A stretch of 63,576 bases of DNA, counting the filler, from Atractiella rhizophila (Eukaryota): assembly GCA_021432655.1 (NCBI GenBank). It is 6 parts of 6 records of this genome, joined end to end, with 100 filler letters (N's around TTAATTAATTAA, not from the genome) between each part and the next. Parts side by side here need not be neighbours in the genome. Positions count along the whole stretch, not along the records: positions 1 to 24,037 come from MU271625.1; 5 more parts are not named here. One strand, written 5' to 3'. The notes beneath the pieces are model-generated. The model did not search any database. It saw nothing but the letters and a program-made list of their open reading frames with translations, and was not told the DNA's origin. Shown piece after piece: positions 1-62,068 of the stretch. The position numbers and the translations under genes were made by a program. The stretch's first letter is position 1. Each line of letters begins with the position of its first letter.

Positions 1-3000
1 GCAAAGGAGATGGCATTCATGAACTCCGTGGTGTTGGGCACCAAGGCGAACAGAGTGATACCCAAGAACTTCTCAGGGATGGCAGCATCCTCCAGTACAA
101 CGTCAACACAGTCAACCAGAATCTCTGTTCATTCACAGCACGATAAACGATCCAGGCAGACAGCAGACAGGGAAAAGCAACGCACCAGCAATAATAGCGT
201 AAAGGACGGTGCAGCCCATAAGGACGCTGGCGCTCTTCGTCCTGCTCCAGTTGGGTGCGTCATGTCCTCCATGGCCACCTTCATCGTGCTCCTCAGCGTG
301 CACGGAGATGGCTTGTGGAGGTCTGGAAATAGAGGGATCTCTGCGATGCTGAGCCAACTCTGGGTGTTGGATTATCGTCGAAGCAACGACTTCCAAAGCT
401 TGCGACATTTGAGCTGAGGTCATTCCCTCCGGGATGCTTTCTTCAGGAATCGTGATGGGAACGGAGACCTGACCTCCGCTCGTGCGTTGGCTTTGTGGGG
501 CGATGGACGCGCGATGACCAGATGTTCCCTGACTATTTCGATTTTCGCCTGGGTTGGTGTTTGCGACGAGTATGTTTTTGAGGAAGTCGGTTGCCGGATT
601 CTGGGCAACGACGCGCTTATAGATGGACATGCGGTTACTGTTAGCAGTTGGGATGTTGGATGGAGGGACATGTTCGGCAGGCGCCTGGACGTTCTGCCAG
701 ATCTGAGAAGCGTGCGTCTTCAATGAGAACCACAACCCTGTGAGGTACGACTAAAGCATGGGCAAACAATAAGCATTGCTCCGGTTGGGGAAGGAGAAAG
801 CATTTACGAGCACAAGGAGGATTGCACAATAGTATGAAAGCTTCCTAACCGTGTTTTGATAGAATGGGTCGTCGGCAGGTTCAAGGTGCTCGTAGTGGCA
901 TCGCTTGCATTGCCACTGACCATTTGCGCCTGGAGGACATCCTTCGCAGACTAGTTGAAACTAATTTCACGGATATCAGTTTCTATCACAAAGAGAAAGG
1001 AAGCGCGAAGAATACTCACCGTGCCGTAAATTTCGTAAAAGAGGGTAGGTGTCAGGGTCCCAATGATGGCCATAATCAACATAGTGCTCGTGACACCTGC
1101 ACTTTTTGCATTGAACTTCTGCTCCTTCCTCCTGAATGCCCCTCCAATCATACTGAATCCAGGCATCAACAGCACACCAGCGAGCAAACTGCCAACAATC
1201 GAACCCTCCACCAATGCCGCCTTTCCATCAATCAATGCTATGGCGTACAAGAGAATCTCGATCAAAGATCCAAAAGTCGCATTGATCACGGCTCCCATTC
1301 CGATAGAAGATTGAGCAGATATAGATGCGACCGCCATTCCGATGAAATAGGAAAGTGGGATGACGGAGAGGAGAGCGAGTATGAAGATTGTTCCTTGGGA
1401 GGTAAGGATGGCCAAGAATCCTTTTGCATGTTTGGGGTGTTCGAGAAGGTATTCACGGATGAACCAGTCGTCAAAAATAACAAAGAAGACCAAGGGAAGG
1501 AGGAGGATGAACATGATGTTGACACCGTCGATGGTGTATTTGTAATACTGCAACCCAACGGCGCGATAAGTGCAAAGCAAAACGGTACTGTTGGGTCCAT
1601 GCAACCTTCCAGCAGCCCGAGAGGCGGCGTACGTCTTCCTCGAATGCCTAGGTGCCCTCTGTCCAGGCGTGAGAGCAGGCATAAATTTGGAGCCTTCGAC
1701 TCCAGACGATCCCACAGACGTAGGTTCTTTCGCCTCTCTATGAGAGTAAAACTTGGGAGGGGAGCGGAAGTGGAGAGCGAGCGGTTCGACGGCGAGAAGA
1801 CAGACGAGTTCCCACATGAGTTTCGCCATAGGGATAGAGAAAACGAGTGCCCAACAGATGCCGCAGACGAGGATCATGAGTGGCGCGATGAAGATATAGA
1901 ATGTTGTCCAGTACATGAGCCTGCCTAACGCTCGAACCCGGAAACCGCTGCGAGTGTGCGTCGAAGAAGAATCGGTATCGACCACATTGCCTTTCCCCAT
2001 GATCGTCTCCTCACTACCACTGGAACTAGGCAGGCGCTTCCCGTTCTCAGGAAAGCTTCCATAGCGAGCCCCATTCCCTCCCGCAGCGGTCTGTAGCAAG
2101 CTCTGTCCCTCCGCTGCAGGTCTGAGCGTTCCAGTCCCGCTCCCAGTGCTCCTGCGAAGTTCACTACCAGCCCTACGTCCATATGTCCTTCCATCGTATT
2201 CGACGTCCCTTTCTCCTTCATCTTCTTCGTCCTCCTCTTCACCCTCCTCAGGGATATCATCCCACTCTCCCTCTCCCTCTGCCCTTCTATTCTTTGGCAA
2301 CGCATCATCGAATCCCTCGACGTACTTCCCAAAAGGCCAGAAAAGGTATCCGGCAAGCTCAAAGACCACTCGTCCATACTTCTCTCCACCAAAAGGTACG
2401 AGCCAAAGCAGACCGGAGAGGATGACAAAAGCGAGGGCGAGCCACCAGCCGAAGAGAAGGGTCCAAAGAATATTCCCCAAGTGAAATGAGGACTGTTCGG
2501 TGGCGCTGGGAACTACGTGAAGAGCGGTCTCTGCATTGCGAGTGACGGATCGAGACTTCTTGTACAGAGCGGGTTTCCAGATCCTCAATCCAAAAGGATG
2601 CTCAATGTTGATGGCGTCCTGCCTGTCCTTCAACGTATACTCGACATCACCATCGTCCTCCACATCGCCATCATATGCCTCCTCCTCGTCATGCTCTTCC
2701 CCACGCGCTCCGCCATCGGAATGAGGCCCGTCGTCTCCCTCTCCTTCGTCTTCATGAGCGGAAACAGAGTGCGCAACAAGGCTAGGCTCTCTCTCCCTCC
2801 CTCCTCTCCCCGTAGCAGTGGAGGAGCTGACGTAGCTCCTCCCTCCAGGGCTCATGGGCGTTCGCAGAGCTTCGGCGTGTATCGCACTCTCACTAGGCAT
2901 CGGTGGGACTCCCAAAGACCTCGGCGTGAGATTTGGCGTGAGGAACGGATTGACGGTTTCGGTCTCGTCCTCTGAGAGCACGCCATCGGATGGAGTGCTG

Positions 3001-3896
3001 GAGGAAAACGAATGCATTCGAGAGCGTGGGGCGCGAGATTCGGGCTCCAATGATGCTCCGCGGGAGTGCACATCATCTGGAGGGAGTGGGAGTGGCGGCA
3101 CGGGCTGAGGAGGTACAGGAGAGGTGCCTAGTTGTGCATTGGAGATCTGGCGAGAGAGCCGGCGGGTAAGGTTCGCTTTGCGTTCTGCTTCCTGCTCCGT
3201 CCCACAACTGCTCAGCAACTTCGCGACAGCGAGTAAGGAAGAGAATACCTTCTTGGCCTTGGCTCTCTGTCTCATCCGCTTCCTTACAAGTTCTTCGCCT
3301 CTATCCACTCGCTCCACTTCATCGTCTTCATCTACCTCCACCGCTCCCTCAAAATCACTCGCGTTGATAGCCTCAGTCTCTTCATCTTCATCATCACTCA
3401 TCGGACCCCTCCTCGCAAAACCACCGACTCCAACCTGAACCGGCCTATTGCTAGTGGAGCGTTTAACAGGCGGTCGTGACCCGCTTCGTCCCTTTCCCTT
3501 ACTCCCACCTGGCGCGCTCCCACTCGTCGCAGAAGCGGCACCTACGCTACCCTTCCCCTTCACACCTGCACCTCCTTTCGAAGGCGGTTGAGCGAACGAG
3601 ATCGCACCTGGTCTCGCACCGCCCGTTCCAGTCGACGCTCCGGACTTGGACTTAACTGTGTTCTGACCTGAATCCGAGAAGTAATCCTCCTCTCCCCTCC
3701 CTGAATTTCTAACGGCCGTTGGCGAAGTATGTGGGCTCATAGCTGGTTCTCTAGCCTCTCCAGCGTTGGGAGATGTGAATGTGCTCGCATCGGAAGGGGC
3801 TGCAGGGTGCCCATGTCCCAACTGAGATTGCACCTGTGAGCCTACGCTGGACTGGCTTATCGTGCTTGACGGCTGAATGGAGTCGCGTGACTCCAT
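1..3896 (-). CDS. VNX1: Vacuolar monovalent cation/H+ antiporter, CAX/Na_Ca_ex family (Vnx1-like); multi-exon, 3' end runs off the window
   Basis: Motifs TLKDRQDAINIEHPFGLRIWKPALYKKSRSV, GNILW..FGWWLA, YYKYTIDGVNI, GMGAVINATFGS..EI, GSLL..VLLMPG and LVPNTTEFMNAISF. GT-AG introns at 3192-3248 and 961-1019 plus two further ones near 750-805 and 125-185. Confidence 0.93.
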
Positions 3897-4529
3897 CGCT
3901 GGTCGCTACGTGGTGGACTGACTGGGGCTGGCACTGAGAATATCACGCAAGAAGAGAGGAAATGGTGGGAAGTCGCCCCTAATCACCAAAGGTTCGCGGT
4001 TCGTTTTGCACCAGATGTTTGTTCTCACGAATTAGGAAATGCCGAAGCGGCTATTTACTACTCCTACAACCATGACGTAGGCAGGTGAAAATGGACTCAA
4101 TGGAAGGTGGGCAAGCAAGCAGCTTGAGCACTCGTATATTCTCTTCACCTGAAATTGCAAGGAGCTCGACGGTGTACTGTATACAAGCTATTTGTCATTC
4201 GTGCCAGGCGACGAATGACACTGGTTGCTTTCTGGCCATTGGTCTGAATCGCGGGCTTGCTCCATTGCCTTTTTTATATCGCACAGTATCGGATGCTTCG
4301 AACCATTTCGACCTCTCGACAAGTCTCGCTGAAGCTGGTCGTATGAGCGAGCATGATGTGTTATCAGGGGCCGTGAAACAATCCTTCACACTAGCTCGAT
4401 ATTCTTGTTATCTCTCAAATCTAAATCATTTTCTTACTTATTTCTGGATTTATAATATCCTTGCCTCTACACGCATATGTTATCCCTACCTAAATAACAA
4501 CAAATTTAGATTGAGTGATAAAGGTATAG
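1555..4529. repeat. Segmental duplication copy A (VNX1 5' part plus upstream region); direct repeat of 5673-8647, offset 4118 bp
   Basis: Near-identical sequence; ORF coordinates shift by exactly 4118 (3896 to 8014, 4085 to 8203). Confidence 0.97.
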
Positions 4530-5671
4530 GTTATCAGCAGCGAATCTTATTAGGAACTTAAGGTGCGTGGTTTTTAAGGAACTCAATTGCGTCTTGCATG
4601 GTCTAAAACATCAGTGCAATACATGTAATAGGTTTGTTGAAGGCGATTTGAAGTCTGCTCAGTTACAGTATACAGCACAATTTTTATCTCCGCACTAATT
4701 TTGACAAGAAAAACAGCTACGTGAACTGAATATGCACAAAAAAATTGAAGTTGGGGACCTGAGTGCCCAGGATGCTGCAAAGGAGAGACGAACTGTCGCC
4801 AAACTTGGTAATTTGATAAGGTCATTGGGTAGCCTCGCTTTGCTTTGATTTCTGGTGACTGTCCACAACCTGATGGAGCACTCCCGGCTGTAAAAGAGTC
4901 TCGAGAAAGGCCAACAGCGTCCAGGCATCCTGATCAGAATCAGAGTGACGTCCAGTCCGATAACAAGAAGAAACCCATACCTTGAAATTAGAAGCGAGTC
5001 CAAAAGAGACTCGACAGAGACCGTCAGCACGCTGTCCCAATGAAGACAGCATGTCTTGACTTGTGTCGCCTGCCTTCACCTGCCGCATCAAATGTTCGAC
5101 ACCCATCAGCACCGCGGCTCCTCCTATTCGAACAACGGTCACGTATCCGATCAATATGTGCGGAGGGGACACCAACCTGGATTGCACATGCAGCCAGATC
5201 GGAAGCAGATGCCCTGCATCCCGCATATGAGTCTGCATCAGGATAGGGACTCCAACATACCTTTCTACCCGCTGCCTGTTCCACCACCTCAGAGCTCACG
5301 AAAACTCCCTGTTCATCCATGATCTCGAAAGTGATAATGGCTCCATAGTGATCCCTCAGTGTGTTCAGATCCAGATTAGCCTGGGGGCTTCTAACCACGA
5401 CTAAGGGTGAACCAGATGAATGCTTCAGGAGAGCCATATTTTGGACGGTCCAATGGACGAGGCATGGGAGTCTCCTCCTCATGTCGTTCATGTGTGTCTG
5501 CAAAATATCGAATCCAAGAGGAACACAAATGGTGCTCAGAAAGTTGATGGTGCCGTCCATAAATCGTTCTGCCCCTCTTTCCAATGTCACGACGTCTCCG
5601 GGACACTGTGCAAGCTCTACAGTGCCCCCGCTAAACCAGGGTTTCTTCAGTTCCGAGAAAAGTGACTTTTT
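4079..5671. repeat. Copy 1 of ~1.6-kb unit (downstream flank plus 3' half of sulfurase-like gene)
   Basis: Matches 8197-9839 and 9856-11468. Confidence 0.95.
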
Positions 5672-8014
5672 ACCAACGGCGCGATAAGTGCAAAGCAAAA
5701 CGGTACTGTTGGGTCCATGCAACCTTCCAGCAGCCCGAGAGGCGGCGTACGTCTTCCTCGAATGCCTAGGTGCCCTCTGTCCAGGCGTGAGAGCAGGCAT
5801 AAATTTGGAGCCTTCGACTCCAGACGATCCCACAGACGTGGGTTCTTTCGCCTCTCTATGAGAGTAAAACTTGGGAGGGGAGCGGAAGTGGAGAGCGAGC
5901 GGTTCGACAGCGAGAAGACAGACGAGTTCCCACATGAGTTTCGCCATAGGGATAGAGAAAACGAGTGCCCAACAGATGCCGCAGACGAGGATCATGAGTG
6001 GCGCGATGAAGATATAGAATGTTGTCCAGTACATGAGCCTGCCTAACGCTCGAACCCGGAAACCGCTGCGAGTGTGCGTCGAAGAAGAATCGGTATCGAC
6101 CACATTGCCTTTCCCCATGATCGTCTCCTCACTACCACTGGAACTAGGCAGGCGCTTCCCGTTCTCAGGAAAGCTTCCATAGCGAGCCCCATTCCCTCCC
6201 GCAGCGGTCTGTAGCAAGCTCTGTCCCTCCGCTGCAGGTCTGAGCGTTCCAGTCCCGCTCCCAGTGCTCCTGCGAAGTTCACTACCAGCCCTACGTCCAT
6301 ATGTCCTCCCGTCGTATTCGACGTCCCTTTCTCCTTCATCTTCTTCGTCCTCCTCTTCACCCTCCTCAGGGATATCATCCCACTCTCCCTCTCCCTCTGC
6401 CCTTCTATTCTTTGGCAACGCATCATCGAATCCCTCGACGTACTTCCCAAAAGGCCAGAAAAGGTATCCGGCAAGCTCAAAGACCACTCGTCCATACTTC
6501 TCTCCACCAAAGGGTACGAGCCAAAGGAGGCCGGAGAGGATGACAAAAGCGAGGGCGAGCCACCAGCCGAAGAGAAGGGTCCAAAGAATATTCCCCAAGT
6601 GAAATGAAGACTGTTCGGTGGCGCTGGGAACTACGTGAAGAGCGGTCTCTGCATTGCGGGTGACGGATCGAGACTTCTTGTACAGAGCGGGTTTCCAGAT
6701 CCTCAATCCAAAAGGATGCTCAATGTTGATGGCGTCCTGCCTGTCCTTCAACGTATACTCGACATCGCCATCGTCCTCCACATCGCCATCATATGCCTCC
6801 TCCTCGTCATGCTCTTCCCCACGTGCTCCGCCGTCAGAATGGGGCCCGTCGTCTCCCTCTCCTTCGTCTTCATGAGCGGAAACAGAGTGCGCAACAAGGC
6901 TAGGCTCTCTCTCCCTCCGTCCTCTCCCCGTAGCAGTGGACGAACTGACGTAGCTCCTCCCTCCAGGGCTCATGGGCGTTCGCAGGGCTTCGGCGTGTAT
7001 CGCACTCTCACTAGGCATAGGTGGGACACCCAAAGACCTCGGCGTGAGATTGGGCGTGAGGAACGGATTGACGGTTTCGGCCTCGTCCTCTGAGAGCACG
7101 CCATCGGATGGAGTGCTGGAGGAAAACGAATGCATTCGAGAGCGTGGGGCGCGAGATTCGGGCTCCAATGATGCTCCGCGGGAGTGCACATCATCTGGAG
7201 GGAGTGGGAGTGGCGGCACGGGCTGAGGAGGTACAGGAGAGGTGCCTAGTTGTGCATTGGAGATCTGGCGAGAGAGCCGGCGGGTAAGGTTCGCTTTGCG
7301 TTCTGCTTCCTGCTCCGTCCCACAACTGCTCAGCAACTTCGCGACAGCGAGTAAGGAAGAGAATACCTTCTTGGCCTTGGCTCTCTGTCTCATCCGCTTC
7401 CTTACAAGTTCTTCGCCTCTATCTACTCGCTCTACTTCATCGTCTTCATCCACCTCCACCGCTCCCTCAAAATCACTCGCGTTGATAGCCTCAGTCTCTT
7501 CATCTTCGTCATCACTCATCGGACCCCTCCTCGCGAAACCACCTACTCCAACTTGAACCGGTCTATTGCTAGTGGAGCGTTTAACAGGTGGTCGTGACCC
7601 GCTTCGTCCCTTTCCCTTACTCCCTCCTGGCGCGTTCCCACTCGTCGCAGAAGCGGCACCTACGCTGCCCTTCCCTTTCACACCTGCACCTCCTTTCGAA
7701 GGTGGTTGAGCGAATGAGATCGCACCTGGTCTCGCCCCTCCCGTTCCAGTCGACGCTCCGGACTTGGACTTAACTGTGTTCTGACCTGAATCCGAGAAGT
7801 AATCCTCCTCTCCCCTCCCTGAATTTCTAACGGCCTTTGGCGAAGTATGTGGGCTCATAGCTGGTTCTCTAGCCTCTCCAGCATTGGGAGATGTGAAGGT
7901 GCTCGCATCGGAAGGAGCGGCAGGGTGCCCATGTCCCAACTGAGACTGCACCTGCGAGCCCACGCTGGACTGGCTTATCGTGCTTGACGGCTGAGTGGAG
8001 TCGCGTGACTCCAT
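4822..8014 (-). CDS. Chimeric gene: VNX1 N-terminal region fused in frame to C-terminal half of Moco-sulfurase-like protein (or chimeric pseudogene)
   Basis: ORF 5024-8014 switches from ..CTYRAVG (VNX1) to KKSLFSELKKPWFSGG (sulfurase) at 5672. The three downstream sulfurase introns keep GT/AG ends, giving GICFRSGCMCNPG...RVSFGLASNF..SEATQ* (stop at 4822). Confidence 0.7.
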
Positions 8015-8647
8015 CGCTGGTCGCTACGTGGTGGACTGGCTGGGGCTGGCACTGAGAATATCACGCAAGAAGAGAGGAAATGGTGGGAAGTCGCCCCTAA
8101 TCACCAAAGGTTCGCGGTTCGTTTTGCACCAGATGTTTGTTCTCACGAATTAGGAAATGCCGAAGCGGCTATTTACTACTCCTACAACCATGACGTAGGC
8201 AGGTGAAAATGGACTCAATGGAAGGTGGGCAAGCAAGCAGCTTGAGCACTCGTATATTCTCTTCACCTGAAATTGCAAGGAGCTCGACGGTGTACTGTAT
8301 ACAAGCTATTTGTCATTCGTGCCAGGCGACGAATGACACTGGTTGCTTTCTGGCCATTGGTCTGAATCGCGGGCTTGCTCCATTGCCTTTTTTATATCGC
8401 ACAGTATCGGATGCTTCGAACCATTTCGACCTCTCGACAAGTCTCGCTGAAGCTGGTCGTATGAGCGAGCATGATGTGTTATCAGGGGCCGTGAAACAAT
8501 CCTTCACACTAGCTCGATATTCTTGTTATCTCTCAAATCTAAATCATTTTCTTACTTATTTCTGGATTTATAATATCCTTGCCTCTACACGCATATGTTA
8601 TCCCTACCTAAATAACAACAAATTTAGATTGAGTGATAAAGGTATAG
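5673..8647. repeat. Segmental duplication copy A'
   Basis: About 98% identical to 1555-4529 by manual comparison. Confidence 0.97.
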
Positions 8648-8988
8648 GTTTTATCAGCAGCTAATCTTATTATTATTTAGGCATAACTTATAGGTGAGAT
8701 CCTGAATGTGGTTTTTGAGGAATTCAATTGCGTCTTGCGTGGTCTAAAACATCATTGCAATACATGTAATACGTTTGTTGAAGGCAGTTTGTTTAGCATT
8801 CCTAAATTCACACATTTGAAGTCTGCTCAGTTACAGTGTACAGCACAATTTTATCTCCACACCAATTTTGACAAGAAAAACAGCTACGTGAACTGAATAT
8901 GCACAAAAAAATTGAAGTTGGGGACCTGAGTGCCCAGGATGCTGCAAAGGAGAGACGAACTGTCGCCAAACTTGGTAATTTGATAAGG

Positions 8989-9839
8989 TCATTGGGTAGC
9001 CTCGCTTTGCTTTGATTTCTGGTGACTGTCCACAACCTGATGGAGCACTCCCGGCTGTAAAAGAGTCTCGAGAAAGGCCAACAGCGTCCAGGCATCCTGA
9101 TCAGAATCAGAGTGACGTCCAGTCCGATAACAAGAAGAAACCCATACCTTGAAATTAGAAGCGAGTCCAAAAGAGACTCGACAGAGACCGTCAGCACGCT
9201 GTCCCAATGAAGACAGCATGTCTTGACTTGTGTCGCCTGCCTTCACCTGCCGCATCAAATGTTCGACACCCATCAGCACTGCGGCTCCTCCTATTCGAAC
9301 AACGGTCACGTATCCGATCAATATGTGCGGAGGGGACACCAACCTGGATTGCACATGCAGCCAGATCGGAAGCAGATGCCCTGCATCCCGCATATGAGTC
9401 TGCATCAGGATAGGGACTCCAACATACCTTTCTACCCGCTGCCTGTTCCACCACCTCAGAGCTCACGAAAACTCCCTGTTCATCCATGATCTCGAAAGTG
9501 ATAATGGCTCCATAGTGATCCCTCAGTGTGTTTAGATCCAGATTAGCCTGGGGGCTTCTAACCACGACTAAGGGTGAACCAGATGAATGCTTCAGGAGAG
9601 CCATATTTTGGACGGTCCAATGGACGAGGCATGGGAGTCTCCTCCTCATGTCGTTCATGTGTGTCTGCAAAATATCGAATCCAAGAGGAACACAAATGGT
9701 GCTCAGAAAGTTGATGGTGCCGTCCATAAATCGTTCTGCCCCTCTTTCCAATGTCACGACGTCTCCGGGACACTGTGCAAGCTCTACAGTGCCCCCGCTA
9801 AACCAGGGTTTCTTCAGTTCCGAGAAAAGTGACTTTTTA
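8989..9839 (-). pseudogene. 5'-truncated copy of sulfurase-like gene (3' exons only)
   Basis: KKSLFSELKKPWFSGG...SEATQ* with no upstream coding sequence; homology to 10617-11468 stops at GACTTTTT (9838). Confidence 0.88.
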
Positions 9840-10616
9840 ACTGTATACAATACTGAGGCAAGTAAACGGACTCATTGGAAGCTAGGCAAGCAAGCAGCTT
9901 GAGTACTCGTATGTGCTCTTCACCTGAAATTGCAAGGAGCCTGAGGGTGTACTGTTTACAAGCTATTTGTCATTCGTGCCATTAAAGATGCGAGGGCAAC
10001 GAATGAGACGGGTTGCTTTCTGGCCATTGGTCCGAATCGCGGGCTTGCTCCGTTGCCTTTTTTATATCGCACTGTATCGGATGCTTCGAACCATTTCAAA
10101 CTCGACAGTCTCGCTGAAGCTGGTCGTATGAGCGGGCATGATGTGTTATCAGGGACCGTAACACAGCCGTGAAACAATCCTTCACACTAGCTCGATATTG
10201 TTGTAATCTCTCAAATCTAAATCAATTTCTTACTTATTTCTGGATTCATAATATCCTTGCCTCTACACGCATAGGTTATCCCTACCTAACTAACAACCAA
10301 TTTAGATTGAGTGATAAAGGTATAGGTTATCAGCAGCGAATCTTATTAGGAACTTAAGGTGCGTGGTTTTTAAGGAACTCAATTGCGTCTTGCATGGTCT
10401 AAAACATCAGTGCAATACATGTAATAGGTTTGTTGAAGGCGATTTGAAGTCTGCTCAGTTACAGTATACAGCACAATTTTTATCTCCGCACTAATTTTGA
10501 CAAGAAAAACAGCTACGCGAACTGAATATGCACAAAAAATTGAAGTTGGGGACCTGAGTGCCCAGGATGCTGCAAAGGAGAGACGAACTGTCGCCAAACT
10601 TGGTAATTTGATAAGG

Positions 10617-12544
10617 TCATCGGGTAGCCTCGCTTTGCTTTGATTTCTGGTGACTGTCCACAACCTGACGGAGCACTCCCGGCTGTAAAAGAGTCTCGAG
10701 AAAGGCCAACAGCGTCCAGGCATCCTGGCCAGAATCAGAGTGACGTCCAGTTCGATAACGAGAAGAAACCCCGTACCTTGAAATTAGAAGCGAGTCCAAA
10801 AGAGACTCGACAGAGCCCGTCAGCACGCTGCCCCAATGAAGAGAGCATGTCCTGACTTGTGTCTCCTACCTTCACCCGCCGCATCAAATGTTCGACACCC
10901 ATCAGCACCGCGGCTCCTCCTATTCGAACAACGGTCACCTATCCGATCAATATGTCCGGAGGGGACACCAACCTGGATTGCACATGCAGCCAGATCGGAA
11001 GCAGATGCCCTGCATCCCGCATATGAGTCTACATTAGCAATACAGACTCCAACATACCTTTCTACCCGCTGCCTGTTCCACCGCCTCAGAGCTCACGAAA
11101 ACTCCATCTTCATCCATGATCTCGAAAGTGATAATGGCTCCATAGTGATCCCTCAGTGTGTTCAGATCCAGATTAGCCTGGGGACTTCTAACCACGACTA
11201 AGGGTGAACCAGATGAATGCTTCAGGAGCGCCATATTTTGGACGGTCCAATGGACGAGGCATGGGAGTCTCCTCCTCATGTCGTTCATGTGTGTCTGCAA
11301 AATATCGAATCCAAGAGGAACACAAATGGTGCTCAGAAAGTTGATGGTGCCGTCCATAAATCGTTCTGCCCCTCTTTCCAATGTCACGACGTCTCCGGGA
11401 CACTGTGCAAGCTCTACAGTGCCCCCGCTAAACCAGCGTTTCTTCAGTTCCGAGAAAAGTGACTTTTTGATGATGAGAGCTCCCAGACCGGTAGGGAATC
11501 CGAATAGTTTGTAGATGCTCAATGCTATGGCATCGATGGATGGGAAACGTTTTAGAGAGATACGGCTAGTACCAAGCAAAGCAGATGCGTCGAGAAAGGT
11601 GGCGTATCCAAGTGCGGAGGCTTGCGCAAGGAGAGAGAGTGGATACTTGATGCCTGTAAGATTCGATTGGCCAGTCAGTACGAAGAGACCTCTAGATTTG
11701 GTCGTGAGAGTTGAAGGTGAAGTTGCAACAAGTCCTTCCTGTCGCAGGGCAAGTTGAATAATTCGTCCTTGAGGAAGATGAACTGACCTTCAAGGAGGCT
11801 GCTGCTTTTGAATACTCCCCTTCGTCCATCGACAAATAAACAACGTCCGCTCCCGCCGCCTTTGCAAAGCACCTCATACCGTTCACGCTGTCTAACCCGT
11901 CCAATCAACATTCAGTCCGCCAAACTTGTATCGAGTGCCAACGTACTGTGAGAGTCGACCCCAAGGACGAGTTTCATGCCTTCCTCATATGCAAACCCCT
12001 CGCCAACAATCCGCAATGCGCCAGTCGCATTTGGTGTCCAGACAACCTCGTATTCATCTTCGTCAGCGACATCGAGGAAGCTCAACAAAGCTTTCCTCGC
12101 CGCCAAATCTCCACGGTCACTGCTTTTCGAGCATGGGTTCGAAGAGTGGGGATTTCCGTAAACATTATTCTGTAGCTGCCCGGCGAAGGAAGTGATCAGT
12201 CTGGATGGGTACAGTGCTGCTCCTGTGTAGTCGAGGTATGTTGTTTGTGAGACCGAGGAAGAAGGTACAGGAGTGTCCAAACGGGAGAAATCCGTTCTAC
12301 GAAGGGAGTCGAGGGAGGGGGAGGCATAGGCGGGATATGTAGCAATGAAGGAAGAGAAATCTTGGTGAAAATTGGAGACATGTCCTACTGCTACGGCCAT
12401 CGAAAGAGAAATAATTTCAGGGAACATGAGAGTGGACCTCTCAATATCCAGCAAGCGGGGCGCAATACCACGATGACGCTGCACCCATCTCGAGAGCAAG
12501 CGCCAATGGAACTTTTTCTTGTCTTTCAGCTCCAACTCTGTCAT
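10617..12544 (-). CDS. Molybdenum cofactor sulfurase-like PLP enzyme (aminotransferase class V / NifS-like domain, no MOSC domain), copy 1
   Basis: YLDYTGAALYP, YGNPHS, spliced SHNSVNG (intron 11892-11946), GQSNLTG, LDASA, SIYKLFGFPTGLGAL (PLP Lys), spliced RSGCMCNPG (catalytic Cys; intron 11010-11057), RVSFG. Confidence 0.88.
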
Positions 12545-13500
12545 TTCTCCGGCGACTTCGGAAGAGTTGTAAGCAAGGCAGAGTTTGCCACTGTAAGCCT
12601 ACGCGGTCGCCACAAGATCACGATGTTCTTTTGAATGTTCTCCCCCGAGGTTTTTGGGAGGCAAGAGTTGAATAATTTTTGGGTTTTTCGAGCTGCTTGC
12701 CCTCTTCGAGGGGTTTTTATATGTTTGCCCGGCCCTCCTTCTGATGCATGGTGTTCCAAATAGGTCTCCTCATATTTCATTCAAGAGGAGATGGACGATC
12801 TTGGGAGCGGAGAGCCGTGACAAACGGATTCCTCCAAACCCGTTCGAATCCTGCAGGCAGGAGTGGGTCGGGTATTCCGCACTGTCCTCACCAGTTGTGG
12901 TAGTTCGACAGTTATGACATCGCGATTCAAAGGTACAGTAACGGAAATATCCGAGAAGGGTCGATCGCTCTGCAGAGCTTGGTATTGTCCAACTGATTTT
13001 CAAGAGCTAGGCAACGGGCAACTGACGGAGCTGGGTCGATTAATATTGCAACATGAAAACGACTAGAACGGGGCTTTACGCTCGGTCCTCCCACTTGGTG
13101 TAAGCATGAAATAATCAAAATTAGCATCCTCACTACACAAAGACACGGTCCAAGGAGCCAAAGGTGGACAAGAAAGATGAATGAGCTTCTATTTGCATTC
13201 TCCTCTAAAGCCTACATATTGGACTCAGTCGGCGTCCCATCTCAGAATTATTTCTTCACAAAGGTTCTAAAGGTTCTGCGGCGCCGTTTCAGGATCATTC
13301 AGAACCGCCCGACATTGATGCTTTGCCAATGCTCGAGCGTCGGGTGAAATGTCGCAGCCTTGGCGGCTGGAACCCTGTGAGCGTGACAGGCAGGCTATGC
13401 CATACTCACCGTTCACATGAGGTATGAAGTTTTCAACTTCGTCAATCAATCACATATTTAGGAGCACTGAAGCGAACTGGAAAACTGCCGAGTAATTTGA
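12545..13500. repeat. Upstream region of sulfurase copy 1, homologous to 16044-17000
   Basis: Collinear blocks, e.g. CACTACACAA.GACACGGTC..AGGAG.CAAAGGTGGACAAG at ~13131 and ~16639. Confidence 0.8.
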
Positions 13501-14128
13501 AGTTGTTAATGAGTAGCTTCACTTCACGCACCCTTCACTAACATAAATAATGATTGTTCCCCTTTGAGCCTAGTACGCCGTCCTCCCTACCCAGCTCACA
13601 CCATTTTCGCATACCGCATATCCTATATCACGCCTTCATGCTTCACGTACGTGCTTCGCATCCCATGGTTTTTGATTGAACGAGAACAACCCAGCTGTAG
13701 CCAATCCCGCCCGCCAAACTTACCTGTTTGAGCTTATTTGAGACACCCAAAGCATCAAGATGTATCGATATCGATATAATACATTATAGCTTGAAAAATG
13801 TCTGTGGTGGATGAAGAGACAACGTGCAATCAGTGAATGACCACAGGGTCGATCACCGTGGGCGGTCTGAAATATTACAATATTTGAGCAGCTTAATCAT
13901 TCGGCTGAAGGCGCTTCATGTGGGATGCTGAAGTTTTGTAGGTTCAAAACCTGATCTTGACTCTTCGTCACTCCTAGAGTACTATTTATACACAACATAG
14001 TTTATATGAACGCCTATTCTGAAAGGAACTCGGTCACTCAAACTTATATTCACAAAAAAAACTTGAAGGTGATGATATCGAAATGTGAGAGAGGAACTGT
14101 GCCTCAAAACTTGATAATTTAAACGAAA

Positions 14129-16043
14129 TCATTCGGTAGCCCTGCTTCGCACTGATCTCTGGTGACTGTCCACAACTTGACGGAGCACTCCGGGTTGTAA
14201 GAGAGTCTCGAGAAAGGCCAACAGTGTCCACGCATCCTGGTCATGATCAGATTGACCCCCATTTCGGTGACAAGTATGGACCCCATACCTTGAAATTAGA
14301 CGCAAGTCCAAAAGAGACTCGACAGAGCCCGTCGGCGCGCGGCCCCAATAAAGACCACATGTCCTGGCTTGTATTTCCTGCCTTCACTTGCTTCATCACC
14401 TGTTCTGTGCCCATGAGTACCGCGGCTGCTCCTATTTCAAACTGTTAGCTGTTGCCTGGACACGACGGAGACTAGCCTGGATTGCACATGCAGCCAGAGC
14501 GAAAGCAGATGCCCTGGACGTATCATGAATCTGGATATCGAATGCAACTGCAAGCTTCAACATACCTTTCTACCAGCCTCCTGTTCTACCGCCTCAGAGC
14601 TCACGTAAACTCCATGTTCATCCATGATTTCGAAAGTGACAATGGCCCCATAATGGTTCCTCAATGTGTTCAGATCCAGATTAGGCTGAGGACTTCTAAC
14701 CGCGACTAAGGGTGAACCGGACGAATGCTTCAGGAGCGCCATATTTTGTATCGTCCAGTGCACAAGACAGGGTAATCTTCTCCTTATATCGCCCATGTGC
14801 CCCTGCAAGATATCAAATCCAAGCGGGACGCAAAGGATGCTCAGAAAGTTGATCGTCCCGTCCATAAATCGTTCTGATCCTTTTGCCAGTGTCACGGCGT
14901 CTCCGGGACATTGCGCCAGTTGGACGGTCCCACCGCTGAACCAAGGTTTCTTTAGTTTCAGGAAGAGAGATTTCTTGATGACGAGAGCTCCTAGACCGGT
15001 AGGGAATCCGAATAGTTTGTAAATGCTCAATGCGATAGCGTCGACGGATGAATAATGCTTGAGGGAGATACGACTCGAACCAAGCAGAGCGGATGCGTCG
15101 AGAACGGTCGTGTATCCAAGGGCAGCAGCCTGTGAAAGGAGAGAAAGTGGATACCTGATGCCTGTAAGATTCGATTGACCAGTTAGTACGAAGAGACCTC
15201 TGGATTTGACTGTAGGCGCCGAAGTTGAAGCTGCTTCAAGCCCTTCCTGTTGAAGGCGTGAGCTTGAAGACGTGGTTCCTGAGGAAGCCGACTTACTTTT
15301 ACGGAGGCAGCTGCTCTGAAGTAGTCACCTTCGTCCATTGATAGATAAACAACTTCTGCCCCCCCTGTCTTTGCGAAGCACCTCATACCATTCACGCTGT
15401 CTAATACGTTAGCGATCAGTTCCAGCCAGCCAAAACCTGTATCAAGAACCAACGTACTGTGAGAGTCGACTCCTAGGATGAGTTTCATCCCTTCCTCATA
15501 CTCAAATCCCTCGCCCACGATCCGCAACGCACCAGTCGCATTTGATGTCCAGACGACCTCGTATTCATCTTCGTCAGCGACATCGAGGAAGCTCAACAAA
15601 GCTTTCCTCGCCTCCAAGTCTCCCCCTTCACTCCTTTTCGAGCATGGGTTCGAAGAGTGCGGGTTTCCGTAGACGTTATTCTGTAGCCGATCGGCGAAGG
15701 AAGTGATCAGTCTGGATGGGTAAAGCGCTGCACCAGTGTAGTCGAGATATGTCGTTTGCGAGTCGGAGGAAGGTGCAGGTGAGTCCAGACGGGAGAAGTC
15801 CGTTCTTCTAAGGGAGTCGAGGGATGGGGACGCATAGGCGGGATATGCCGCGATGAAGGAAGAGGACGCTCGCTGGAAATTGGACACGTGTCCAATGGAA
15901 ATAGAGATAATTTCGGAGAACATTAGACTCGACCGCTCGCTGTCCCGCAAGCGGGGCGCCACAGCACGATGACGCTGCATTCGCCTTGACAGCAAAAGCC
16001 ACCACCGTGACCCTTTCTTGCCCTTCAACTCCAACTCTGTCAT
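14129..16043 (-). CDS. Molybdenum cofactor sulfurase-like PLP enzyme, diverged tandem paralog (copy 2)
   Basis: Same motifs and intron positions as 10617-12544; ends DAWTLLAFLETLL...RATE*. Confidence 0.87.
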
Positions 16044-17313
16044 CTCTGCTGCGACTTCGACCTCTCCAAATTCCTTAAGTAGCAGGATATTGTAGCCAGA
16101 GAAGATTTGTCACTCACTCTACAGCTACAAGCCCACCATGTACTTTTGAATGTTCCCCGAGGTCTTTGGGAGGCAACAGGTGCTGAAAATTTTGGGTTAT
16201 TCTAGCTGCTTTCGCTCATCGATGGCCTTTTATATGCTTGCCCAGCCCTCTTTCTGAGGCACGGTGTTCCAAATAGGCCCTCGTCATGATTCAGTATGCG
16301 ATGGGCAACTTTTGTTACTCGAGAGCTGTAACAAATGGATTCCAAGAACTAGTTTGAATCCTACAGGCAGGAGTGACATGTTCCGCTCAATCCTCCTGGT
16401 CGTGGCATTTTCACAGCTGTGACTTTTCGCGCTGTGTCACAATTGTACGGGTGAAGGTCATGGAAAAATTCGAGGACACTGGATCGCTCTGCAGAACTTG
16501 GTTATCATTCTAACTGATTTTCAGCGGGGATCAACATGAAAACGATCGAGAGTTGTCGGTTGTAAAAGTAGAAACCAGGCTTTACGTCTAAGCGCTCTCG
16601 CTCGATGTGAGCATGAAATAAATCGATATTGTTATCCTCACTACACAAGGACACGGTCGCAGGAGTCAAAGGTGGACAAGGAGGATTTTATTGTGTGCAG
16701 TTTATTCTCCTAAAGCCACATACATTGGATCAACTCCTCTGGAGTCATCTCATATGTTTCTCCACACAAAGCCCCAGGCATCATTTCAAAACCATTCAGA
16801 AACAGCAACTGCTTGGAAGCTCTGCTCTGGTCTGCCGTAGGGGGAATCGTTGAACGGAGCAAACCCTGAGTGGAAGGCTATGCCCCTCATCACCTCATCC
16901 TTCATTTGCAGTTACAGCTTCGTCAATCAACCGTATGTGTGGCATACTAAGATGTTAAGAACGCTAAAGCGCAGTGGAAAACTGTCGACGCGAGTAATCT
17001 CAAGCTGTGAAGGAGGAGCTTTACACACCGTTTGCTTCAAATATACAGAAATGGATATTCTCCAAGGTTCTGCCATTTAAACCAACCATTGTACTCCCGT
17101 GTTCCCAGTCCCTGCCCCAGTCTAAATGACCTATGCTGCGCTATTCTTCCCTGTCGTGCTCAGGCAGCTTTAACTTTCTGGATTCCGTCGTGCATCATTC
17201 GTCTCCTTCTACTGACTGACTTTCGGTGGCGGATCCCGCCCGCTGCCAACACCAAGCGATTCTGAATTGTCTCTCCAGCCTCGAGCCTCGATATATATGC
17301 GATAGCTTGACAA

Positions 17314-18469
17314 ATGTCTGTGGTATTCATCACTGGCCCTCCATCCTGCGGGAAGACCACGCGTTCTTCCGAACTCAGCGCATTCCTCGCATCACGCTCT
17401 CTCTGTCCAATCATCATCAACGACGAGTCGCTCTCCCTCTCTCGCAGCGCTTACGATGGTATGTATCCAGACCATCTTCGTGAGAGATCGCAGTGTTGAT
17501 GTTCGTGAATGGAAACAACAGATTCGAAAACCGAAAAACCCGCTCGAAACGCCTTTTTCTCTGCCGTGGTGAGGGTGTTGTCGAATGAAGCGGATGGAGG
17601 GAAGAGAGTGGTCATCGCGGATGGAATGAACTACATCAAGGGCTTTAGGTACCAATTGTACTGTGCAGCGAGAGAAGCGAGGGTCAGACATGTTACTGTG
17701 AGTTTTCGACATCTACCGTAGCTCTAAGAATTGTAACTGATGGAGCGATTTGGGATAGGTCCAGATTGCTGCTCCTCCTGATGAATGCAAAAAGTGGATC
17801 GCTTCTCGTCCCCTTTCAGAGCAATACGGCGAAGCGACGTGTGTCTGCCTCTTCCAAATTATCATTCCATCATCTGATAGGTGGATGGAAGCCTCGAGAA
17901 CCTGATTGGTCGTTACGAAGAGCCCATACCGTCTAATCGATGGGACTCTCCACACTTCCTCATACCCTGGATCGACGGAGAAATCTCCTCTTTACCGATC
18001 GCAGAAGACATCTTGACAGTTCTCACAAGCGGAGAAGTGAAGCGACCCAACATAGCCACCATCGCTGTTAGTTCCCTTCCTTATCACCTTCCATCTTTCA
18101 CAACGACAAGAAATTTATTGATTTCATCCCAACATCGTACAGACACCCGTCTCGACGACAGACTACCTCCACACGCTGGACGGCACGACCACCATACTAA
18201 TCCGGTCCCTGCTCGCCCTCCAAACCTCTCTAGGGAGCGGGCAGACGTTATCCGGCACCTCCCTCGTCCTCCCTCTCGACCTCTCCTCTCTATCCGGTCC
18301 CTCCTCCTTCTCTCTCTCCCTCCCTCCTCTTCCACCAAAGACTCTCACCCTCCCGCTACTGAACAGACACAAACGCGTCTTCGTGCAGATGTCAAAAGCG
18401 AATGGGGTGGAGTACAAGCCGGAGAAGGTGGCGGAGCTGTTTGCGCTCTACCTCTCCACGGTCCTTTGA
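17314..18469 (+). CDS. KTI12: Elongator-associated protein Kti12 (PSTK-like P-loop)
   Basis: MSVVFITGPPSCGKTTR, VIADGMNYIKGFRYQLYC, RYEEP..NRWDSP; multi-exon; C-terminal LTLPLLNRHKRVF..AELFALYL*. Confidence 0.92.
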
Positions 18470-18549
18470 CCAATCCTTCATCTCGACCCAGATAGAGAGA
18501 TAGAAGTAGGAGGGTTGAGTCAGAAGAGGGGAGGGCGGCGAGGTGATGA

Positions 18550-20242
18550 TCAGGCGAAACCGACCAACGCCTCTCTTCCTTTTCGATCGATCCTCAATAC
18601 TCTCCTCCCCACAAGCCTATACACAGCCTTGGTGACTTCTCCTCCGTCCACCGCTCCGCCTTCACCAGACCCAGATCCAGCAGCCAAAAAGGCCTTCAAC
18701 CCATCCATCGATACGAGGGCCTCGTTTCCGTCTCCATCTCCTCCTCCTCCTAATAACGAGGCAGAGAGGCTAGGTTTGACATGCACAGGTAAGGAAGAGG
18801 AAGATGTGAAGTGATGTTGAAGAAGGGTGCGGAGGATCATGCCTTCGGTTGTTTGAGGGAGGAGGGGGAGAAGAGAAGAGTAGGAGGAGGGGAGGGAAGG
18901 ATGAAGGTGTTGGATCCTTGCCTGTCGTGTCAAAGAAAATAGGTCAGCCTGAAATGAGCGGATGAAGAAGGAAGGGAAGGGATACGAACGATGGCTCGTG
19001 AGAGGCTGTGAGATGTAAGACCAGGGAGCAAATCGGATGTAGGTTTAGACTGAGAAGTAGTTTTGGTTGTCGGTGCTGGAGGAAGGAGGGGCGGAGGTGC
19101 CGGAGTGATTAGAGTTGTTGGAGTCGTCGGTTCTGCCTCAATGGTCGGCTGCGTAGCTGACGATGCAATCTTTATCGTCTCTTCTTCAGTCCTTGCCTCC
19201 TCCTTCTGAGTTTCCTCAGCAACATCCACAGATGTGAGACCTGAGCTCGTAGTTGCACTCGCGACCTTCGGCTTTGGCGCGAATGCAGCAAGCTCCTCTT
19301 CCTGCTCCTTCGTCAACGGGGCTCGTTCCTTCTTCGATCCTAATTTGGAGGAAGGAGCAAAAGCCTTGAGCTCCTCTTCCTCCTCAGCAGTCATCGCCTT
19401 CTTCGTCGCCTTCTTCCTCTCCTCTTGTTGAGGGTGTCTCGAAGATGATATTTCATCAATCTCTCCCCCTTTCGCCTCCTGCTTAGCTCGAATGCCGCCC
19501 ACCTTAGATGGGCGGCGAACAGCCGACTTCTTCTTCTCCCGAGACGCTGCCGCCTGACGCGCTTGCTCGACTTCACGTTCCAGGGCGGCAATGGACGCTT
19601 CTTCCGCCGCTATGAGCTCTGAGAGAGCCGTGGAAGAAGAGGAAGAGGAAGAGCCGTTGAGGATGTGTTCGGAGCGAGAGATGGATGACTTGACGGAAGA
19701 TAAGGCAGTGGTGAGGGCGTGAACGCGTTCTTGGAGGTGCGGGATCGGGCTGGTGCATCCCCCTTTCACCATTTGTAGCGCGATAGATGAGAGAATACGA
19801 ACCAAATGTCTAATAACCTCGCCGCCTCAGCCAGGTTTCGTCCACAATCTTCCATCCCATCTCCCGTCCTCCCACCTCCAACGCCCAAACTCTTCGTCCG
19901 CACACTCCTCCTCCCTCCACCAACCGTGCTTCTCCTACCCACGCCCTCCTCTCCTCCTCCCATACTAAGCGCCGCGACTCCCCTCTTCCTCGGCGTCTTA
20001 GCTCTCACATCCGTCGGCCAGATCCCGTCCTCCTCGTCCTCCAACGGCTCTTCGCCGTTTCCGTGTGCGCGCGGCTCGGAGGGCTTGAAGAGCAGGAGCT
20101 CGGAGGGAATGGGGTCCCGGATGCAGTGTTGTTCGAAGGTCTGGGGTGGGAAGAGGGCGGCTGTGGAAATGACGGGAGTGTAGGGGAATGGATGACTGAA
20201 GAGAGCGGAGGAAGAAGCGATGGATGTGAGGATGGTGCTCAT
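18550..20242 (-). CDS. SPC34: DASH/Dam1 complex subunit Spc34-like
   Basis: N-terminal SIASSSALFSHPFP..IRDPIPSELLLF resembles Spc34 (IRD..E..LF), followed by AARLLD, a coiled coil and C-terminal KAVYRLVGRRVLRIDR; introns near 19760-19800 and 18920-18985. Confidence 0.65.
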
Positions 20243-24037: not shown

Positions 24038-24137
24038 NNNNNNNNNNNNNNNNNNNNNNNNNNNNNNNNNNNNNNNNNNNNTTAATTAATTAANNNNNNN
24101 NNNNNNNNNNNNNNNNNNNNNNNNNNNNNNNNNNNNN
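24038..24137. other. Artificial contig linker (44 N + TTAATTAATTAA + 44 N)
   Basis: All-frame stop spacer inside Ns. Confidence 0.98.
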
Positions 24138-46345: not shown

Positions 46346-46445
46346 NNNNNNNNNNNNNNNNNNNNNNNNNNNNNNNNNNNNNNNNNNNNTTAATTAATTA
46401 ANNNNNNNNNNNNNNNNNNNNNNNNNNNNNNNNNNNNNNNNNNNN
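46346..46445. other. Artificial contig linker
   Basis: N44-TTAATTAATTAA-N44. Confidence 0.98.
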
Positions 46446-54035: not shown

Positions 54036-54135
54036 NNNNNNNNNNNNNNNNNNNNNNNNNNNNNNNNNNNNNNNNNNNNTTAATTAATTAANNNNNNNNN
54101 NNNNNNNNNNNNNNNNNNNNNNNNNNNNNNNNNNN
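54036..54135. other. Artificial contig linker
   Basis: N44-TTAATTAATTAA-N44. Confidence 0.98.
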
Positions 54136-56637: not shown

Positions 56638-57006
56638 NNNNNNNNNNNNNNNNNNNNNNNNNNNNNNNNNNNNNNNNNNNNNNNNNNNNNNNNNNNNNNN
56701 NNNNNNNNNNNNNNNNNNNNNNNNNNNNNNNNNNNNNNNNNNNNNNNNNNNNNNNNNNNNNNNNNNNNNNNNNNNNNNNNNNNNNNNNNNNNNNNNNNNN
56801 NNNNNNNNNNNNNNNNNNNNNNNNNNNNNNNNNNNNNNNNNNNNNNNNNNNNNNNNNNNNNNNNNNNNNNNNNNNNNNNNNNNNNNNNNNNNNNNNNNNN
56901 NNNNNNNNNNNNNNNNNNNNNNNNNNNNNNNNNNNNNNNNNNNNNNNNNNNNNNNNNNNNNNNNNNNNNNNNNNNNNNNNNNNNNNNNNNNNNNNNNNNN
57001 NNNNNN
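56638..57006. other. Scaffold gap (369 N)
   Basis: Run of N. Confidence 0.99.
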
Positions 57007-60386: not shown

Positions 60387-60486
60387 NNNNNNNNNNNNNN
60401 NNNNNNNNNNNNNNNNNNNNNNNNNNNNNNTTAATTAATTAANNNNNNNNNNNNNNNNNNNNNNNNNNNNNNNNNNNNNNNNNNNN
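60387..60486. other. Artificial contig linker
   Basis: N44-TTAATTAATTAA-N44. Confidence 0.98.
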
Positions 60487-61968: not shown

Positions 61969-62068
61969 NNNNNNNNNNNNNNNNNNNNNNNNNNNNNNNN
62001 NNNNNNNNNNNNTTAATTAATTAANNNNNNNNNNNNNNNNNNNNNNNNNNNNNNNNNNNNNNNNNNNN
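61969..62068. other. Artificial contig linker
   Basis: N44-TTAATTAATTAA-N44. Confidence 0.98.

Follow-up and report, generated by a model that had tools for sequence, protein, structure and literature searches.

The window analysed here, a 63,576-nucleotide stretch of the Atractiella rhizophila assembly GCA_021432655.1 joined from six parts, with positions 1 to 24,037 coming from MU271625.1, carries on its minus strand an open reading frame (ORF) in which the 5′ half of a gene for a VNX1-like antiporter runs into the 3′ part of a gene for a pyridoxal phosphate (PLP) enzyme of the NifS/MOCOS kind. Judged from the sequence, this chimera is probably a young, strain-private by-product of duplication that is catalytically inert and either neutral or mildly costly under selection. 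It would have arisen through nested tandem segmental duplications at a co-oriented gene pair, the NifS/MOCOS-like PLP enzyme gene and then the VNX1-like CaCA antiporter gene. Of the explanations weighed, this one is the most likely, an assembly artefact comes next and a functional newborn gene is the least likely. The features concerned are listed below, c1 to c3 denoting the copies and J1 and J2 the two novel junctions.

1..3896, minus strand: intact VNX1-like gene c1, with its ATG at 3896, running off the window start and encoding YccF and Na_Ca_ex domains
1555..5672, no strand assigned: tandem unit copy 1, 97.3% identical to 5673-9839 (alignment of 4168 columns; 64 substitutions, 51 indel columns)
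4822..5672, minus strand: enzyme 3′ fragment c1, parent residues 325-556, GCMCNPG kept and K311 gone
4822..8014, minus strand: chimeric ORF, exons 8014-7367, 7309-5261, 5213-5177, 5123-4981 and 4929-4822, stop codon TGA at 4824-4822
5672..5673, minus strand: J1, VNX1-like ..CGTTGG joined to TAAAAAGTC of the enzyme gene, no microhomology
5673..8014, minus strand: VNX1-like 5′ half c2, a disordered N-terminus and YccF-type segments (PF03733, E 1e-15), no Na_Ca_ex
5673..9839, no strand assigned: tandem unit copy 2, 97.3% identical to 1555-5672
8989..9839, minus strand: orphan enzyme-gene fragment c2, lacking a start codon and a fused ORF upstream, its protein identical to that of the c1 fragment
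9839..9856, minus strand: J2, the join lying at 9840/9839, third-unit intergenic ..ACAGT joined to TAAAAAGTC
9856..11468, no strand assigned: third, partial unit, 94.6% identical to 4079-5671 and 90.9% to 8197-9838
10617..12544, minus strand: intact parent enzyme gene c3, encoding a stand-alone class-V aminotransferase that is NifS/MOCOS-like (556 aa, including K311 and C469)

Self-comparison of positions 1-20000 for duplications yielded a 4.1-kb unit repeated head to tail, J1 being the join between the units, with both parent genes intact on either side. The third unit holds part of the intergenic region and the 3′ part of the enzyme gene and is contiguous with the intact enzyme gene. Along the minus strand, the order is the intact enzyme gene c3 (12544-10617), a partial intergenic region, J2 (9840/9839), the enzyme 3′ fragment c2 (9839-8989), an intergenic region, the VNX1 5′ half c2 (8014-5673), J1, the enzyme 3′ fragment c1 (5672-4822), an intergenic region and the intact VNX1-like gene c1 (from 3896). 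The VNX1 start and the entire upstream intergenic region were duplicated along with it, 3897-5672 corresponding to 8015-9839, as a previous reading of the DNA (hereafter the sequence-only reading) had described; that description is extended by another novel junction, at 9839/9840, which shares its enzyme-gene breakpoint with J1, and by the orphan fragment copy at 8989-9839. Tandem duplications spanning parts of two co-oriented neighbours give rise to chimeric genes and are documented in Drosophila and other eukaryotes. As in those cases, the 5′ part of the downstream gene with its promoter is joined here to the 3′ part of the upstream gene at a head-to-tail junction, and the parents stay intact; unlike them, the present array is nested, has two junctions with one breakpoint and copies of different allele types, and is known from assembly sequence alone. 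The kind of event is well known, and the unusual detail is the use of one breakpoint by two junctions. In the literature, to the extent that its text was open to searching, no paper was found that names both ‘VNX1’ and ‘cofactor sulfurase’.

From ATG 8014, the minus-strand frame crosses 5673/5672 without a stop, ..CTYRAVG passing into KKSLFSELKK.., which bears out the earlier claim of an in-frame passage from VNX1 into the sulfurase at 5672. The glycine codon GGT (5674-5672) straddles the join, with GG belonging to the VNX1-like gene and T occupying the third codon position of the enzyme gene. Once spliced, the coding sequence has 2985 nt in five exons and encodes 994 aa with one terminal stop, i.e. 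761 VNX1-like residues, the junction glycine and 232 enzyme residues; the end at 4822 that had been predicted for the protein is retained, whereas its length of ∼1,000 aa is corrected. The three downstream introns reported before, 5260-5214 (GTATGT..CAG), 5176-5124 (GTTGGT..TAG) and 4980-4930 (GTATGG..CAG), all lie in the enzyme part, the VNX1 part adds an in-frame intron of 57 nt (7366-7310), and all four are GT..AG. The new GT at J1 opens the hexamer GTAAAA (5673-5668), local donors being GTATTC, GTATGT, GTTGGT, GTATGG, GTACGT and GTCAGT. An in-frame join has a prior chance of 1 in 3, and the frame staying open past J1 is uninformative, because the enzyme fragment is almost identical to its sister copy, from which it differs at two sites, both synonymous. 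A public run search gave 19 runs, of which the best four (X1-X4) contain 0.76, 0.69, 0.46 and 0.21 of the sampled words, too little for any of them to be clearly the source of the window; X1 and X2 are one sample. A 101-base contig of X4 (record 22, 5176-5305), from an ∼95%-identical relative, is without the 47-nt intron 5214-5260 and breaks at 5176/5177; taken as a spliced form, it supports the intron model, the kind of run (DNA or RNA) being only guessed.

Since a full copy of the VNX1 upstream region, the enzyme introns and the enzyme 3′-end are all present, the chimera, if J1 exists, should be transcribed and spliced into the 994-aa protein. In the predicted product, a disordered N-terminus would be followed by two hydrophobic membrane segments of the YccF type and by a soluble tail, composed of the last ∼35 residues of the PLP domain and a small C-terminal domain with the cysteine loop. 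Hydropathy analysis places two long hydrophobic stretches in the chimera, at spliced residues 454-486 and 641-684, and the fusion exon (918 aa) has YccF as its only Pfam match (PF03733, residues 473-524 of the unspliced translation, E 1e-15).

The VNX1-like protein is 98.7% identical in amino acids over the shared part to the database protein P0001, from Atractiella rhizophila as the closest named relative. Sources label its relatives as Ca2+:H+ antiporters, and Vnx1 of yeast is a monovalent cation/H+ antiporter of the vacuole. Among the best 120 of 159 homologues, nearly all carry PF03733 together with PF01699, and two carry PF01699 alone. In the intact neighbour, Na_Ca_ex (PF01699) occupies residues 837-970 of the unspliced translation of 3896-951, and the break falls at residue 781 of the unspliced, or residue 762 of the spliced, protein. 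The domain therefore lies beyond the break and is lost from the fusion, in agreement with the claim that the CAX transport repeats are gone. The fusion thus has 761 N-terminal residues including YccF in common with fungal VNX1-like CaCA/CAX antiporters, but unlike them it ends just before the Na_Ca_ex membrane domain; as to CaCA/CAX membership, the N-terminal YccF-type region is present and the transport-core repeats are absent.

The enzyme parent had been called Moco-sulfurase-like (Moco, molybdenum cofactor), and this holds insofar as it is a NifS-like Aminotran_5 protein with the cysteine motif, not in the sense of a true Moco sulfurase. Aminotran_5 (PF00266) is its only Pfam domain; MOSC_N and MOSC (PF03476, PF03473) are absent, and the protein ends directly after the NifS-like domain. 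Its nearest fungal homologues are 447-574 aa long and carry PF00266 only, while proteins labelled molybdenum cofactor sulfurase are weaker matches (31-36% identity) and carry PF03473 and PF03476. Because of its 556 aa, the missing MOSC domains and these PF00266-only closest homologues, we regard the parent as a stand-alone NifS/MOCOS-like PLP enzyme; the enzyme exon is 62% identical to P0121, a PLP-dependent transferase. The small fungal group of 447-574 aa that includes the parent has the GCMCNPG motif in common with true Moco sulfurases. Like the NifS-like domain of MOCOS/ABA3/HxB and like SufS/CsdB, the parent has Aminotran_5, an alignable PLP-lysine motif and GC.CN.G, the last being found in 20 of 25 homologues; unlike MOCOS/ABA3/HxB, it is without MOSC_N and MOSC, and what the fusion has of it, residues 325-556, is without the PLP lysine.

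The lysine in question, K311 of the SIYK motif, aligns with the SGHK lysine of cysteine desulfurases of solved structure and is, we assume, the PLP lysine. The fragment starts at K325, 14 residues past K311, so the PLP lysine is lost, whereas GCMCNPG (parent residues 468-474), whose loop cysteine is presumably catalytic, is present in c1, c2 and c3; both points had been made by the sequence-only reading. The large PLP-binding domain is lost from the fusion as a whole, and neither the fusion nor the enzyme fragment alone matches PF00266 at E ≤ 0.01. By its domain content, the predicted chimera would be a membrane-anchored chain with a non-catalytic tail, and, being without the PLP-binding domain and without the transport domain, it would therefore neither desulfurate cysteine nor transport cations.

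That the chimera is nevertheless a functional newborn gene, expressed and retained because its cysteine-loop domain, tethered to the membrane, takes up or passes on persulfide sulfur, or because the chimera interferes with a parent, we consider improbable. Such a gene would fit the open frame, the intact splice sites, the duplication of the upstream region in full, the retention of the conserved cysteine motif and the position of the stop codon, which, being in the last exon, would not be expected to trigger nonsense-mediated decay. The fragment, however, is without the domain that binds PLP and does not register as Aminotran_5 by itself, so the working membrane-anchored sulfur acceptor, or dominant-negative product, that had been proposed is not borne out. 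Nor was a similar architecture found among the 159 protein matches, none of which covers more than 52% of the junction region, the best 120 of the 159 all being VNX1-like.

A further argument for a functional gene lies in the differences between the VNX1 halves c1 and c2, which are nearly all synonymous (43 of 48; 2, 3 and 43 at codon positions 1, 2 and 3, respectively), with a synonymous divergence (dS) of 0.082, a non-synonymous divergence (dN) of 0.0029 and a ratio (omega) of 0.035. Yet the same copies have no difference in the 57-nt intron and a single one in the 633 bp upstream of the ATG, which argues against a dS of ∼0.08 as the age of the duplication, because tens of intron and upstream differences would then be expected. 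The differences are also patchy, counting 12, 14, 1, 12, 5, 2, 1 and 1 per successive 300 nt of the VNX1 half. In a three-copy comparison over 1670 columns with 83 substitution columns, c3 was the odd one in 60, c2 in 23 and c1 in none, with no three-way column; all 83 are biallelic, which makes two sequence types in a mosaic arrangement. At eight c1-versus-c2 sites in 5673-6635, the related runs have the c1 letter at 5909, 6308, 6311 and 6608 (the last in X2 only) and the c2 letter at 5840, 6512, 6527 and 6530. The letters of both copies thus recur in related runs and point to standing variation, which fits a recent event. Given the near-identical intron and upstream region, the patchy divergence, the biallelic mosaic and the recurring letters, the low dN/dS does not reflect selection on the fusion, and the copy differences are best read as standing allelic variation of the intact, constrained VNX1 gene, spread over the copies. 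The purifying signal in the VNX1 half would accordingly be allelic, and the synonymous bias is accounted for by the intact gene. For the enzyme fragment, c1 and c2 differ at so few sites that selection has had no time to leave a trace, the comparison of c1 with c3 giving 7 synonymous and 8 non-synonymous differences. Of the case for the best candidate for a newly born gene, as the chimera had been ranked, the open frame is what remains. Two uses of the copy differences were discarded, namely dN/dS as a measure of selection on the fusion, ruled out by their allelic pattern, and dating of the duplication by copy divergence, ruled out by the patchy divergence and the two-type mosaic of the three copies.

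Further observations concern the same variation. In the intergenic or 3′ untranslated patch 8649-8863 of copy 2, compared with 4530-4696 and 10326-10492, copies 1 and 3 are identical and copy 2 alone deviates, by 13 substitutions and indels of 2, 10, 1, 10, 27 and 1 bases; outside this patch, copy 1 matches copy 2, again as a two-type mosaic. At 5768, 5786, 5798 and 6184, VNX1 letters in X1-X3 are absent from both window copies, and X1-X3 hold two variant contigs at several places, e.g. at 6494-6635 with 0 and with 6 differences. The species or species complex appears to be highly polymorphic or heterozygous.

Such heterozygosity bears on the existence of the junction itself. If the source was heterozygous (dikaryotic, diploid or mixed), a short-read assembler may have strung the two haplotypes of a single-copy locus, or a small number of chimeric molecules, together as a tandem array that is not real, in which case J1 and the ORF would be absent from the organism. 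An artefact of this kind would agree with the 83 of 83 biallelic columns and with c1 never being odd, and likewise with the two variant contigs found at the same places in related runs (e.g. X1 records 2 and 3, and 7 and 8), which show c1/c2-type and c3-type letters. The window as a whole consists of short contigs joined by N44-TTAATTAATTAA-N44 spacers of 100 bases (44 N, TTAATTAATTAA, 44 N; at 24038-24137, 46346-46445, 54036-54135, 60387-60486 and 61969-62068) and therefore represents a fragmented assembly, in which an additional run of 369 N lies at 56638-57006. In assemblies of heterokaryotic fungi, duplication of haplotypes is a known difficulty, according to the accessible part of one report (PMC10995626). 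With the false duplications of that report, as far as it was accessible, the present array shares adjacent near-identical blocks with differences at the allelic level in a fragmented assembly; it differs from them in how its blocks adjoin, namely at a precise junction of non-homologous sequences within a contig instead of at a gap (PMC10995626).

Haplotype duplications that are false tend to occur at gaps or at the ends of contigs. The first contig begins inside the VNX1-like gene, and since 1-24037 has no N and no spacer, the junction lies inside the contig. J1 joins non-homologous sequences without overlap, and J2 adds another specific novel join; a nested tandem event would give exactly the order c1-J1-c2-J2-c3, and no further duplicated blocks were found in the other 47 kb of the window. 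With graph and overlap assemblers, joins of the J1 and J2 kind require reads that contain them, which counts against an artefact. We therefore judge an artefact rather unlikely and are fairly confident that the junction exists in the source DNA, because two specific non-homologous joins inside a contig need reads and the nested order is the outcome of duplication.

The related runs were then considered at J1. From the VNX1 side, contigs of X1-X3 that reach 5673 run on as canonical VNX1, by up to at least 255 letters; from the enzyme side, those reaching 5671 extend into the canonical enzyme gene by 15-36 letters. The relatives in question therefore have the canonical arrangement, and such canonical continuations on both sides of J1 in three related runs would be expected if the array were false. 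Among the listed contigs of X1-X4, none bridges J1 over 5672/5673, and, as contigs drop variants, this does not show absence; X4 has zero cover from 5306 to 5771. Enzyme-fragment contigs of the c1/c2 type and of the c3 type occur together in one and the same sample and may represent alleles or additional copies. The contig depths of the related runs were set aside as a measure of copy number, depth values not being copy number. A metagenome scan with a 30-base J1 word returned 0 matches and was uninformative, the canonical VNX1 control word also returning 0.

Several of these points weigh against an inert, recent duplication by-product. Besides the canonical continuations in X1-X3 on either side of the join, the contigs of the window are short and spacer-joined, and exact repeats of up to 608 bp in the units could be mis-threaded. 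A single recent event in a haploid genome would not predict three copies with two allele types; for that pattern, either homologues must have exchanged sequence or the assembler must have mixed haplotypes of an isolate that was heterozygous. At face value, the dN/dS of 0.035 would argue for constraint, and the lack of function is argued from the missing domains only.

How nested duplications would have produced two junctions with one end is suggested by the breakpoints. In J1 as in J2, the enzyme fragment starts at the same base with TAAAAAGTC, where the intact gene has CAAAAAGTC and reads ..ATCATCAAAAAGTC. At the breakpoint base, both fragments carry a T in place of the C of the intact enzyme gene, and the loose ends of the relatives’ contigs also have C. 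For J2, the intergenic and enzyme sites match imperfectly at 9 of 13 positions, and through this microhomology the junction can be derived from canonical sequences, its T then stemming from the intergenic side. The shared end may go back to a single event in which one stalled 3′-end switched template backwards twice. Alternatively, a deletion with its end at J1, where GTAAA is shared, may have followed a triplication, or a recurrent break may have combined with a synonymous ATT/ATC allele. A real array from one replication-based event, in which the strand stalled twice at one enzyme-gene base and switched back into VNX1 and then into the intergenic region, and which yielded an expressed, strain-specific, membrane-tethered cysteine-loop gene taking persulfide sulfur from the parent enzyme, is the most demanding version and seems to us very improbable. 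A hairpin acting as a replication barrier at the shared breakpoint was considered and rejected: the AAAAG-TCA-CTTTT stem has −3.4 kcal/mol and a z-score of 0.5, with 137 of 200 shuffles folding as well; folding at the other two breakpoints is unremarkable.

Beyond the array, the enzyme gene has a further relative on the same strand, listed here.

∼14135..16043, minus strand: older paralogue in tandem with the enzyme gene, 77% identical in nucleotides across 2.6 kb

The paralogue block 14087-16686 is 77% identical to 10578-13178 and takes in ∼630 bp of upstream sequence, and in a tblastn search with the c3 protein the main exon matches of the paralogue were free of stops. The enzyme-gene locus has been duplicated at least three times, with periods of ∼3.51, 1.63 and 4.12-4.17 kb.

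For the interpretation of such loci, the chimera holds the lesson that a low dN/dS between duplicates can be allelic variation and is not to be taken as selection on a new gene. Its predicted product, without the catalytic parts of both parents, carries modest biological weight. If the junction is real and transcribed, the chimera would be a very young chimeric gene whose parents, junctions and allelic background can still be read. It would then offer a clean natural example of tandem duplication making new ORFs in a little-studied basidiomycete lineage, and its two junctions on one breakpoint would bear on replication-based rearrangement mechanisms.

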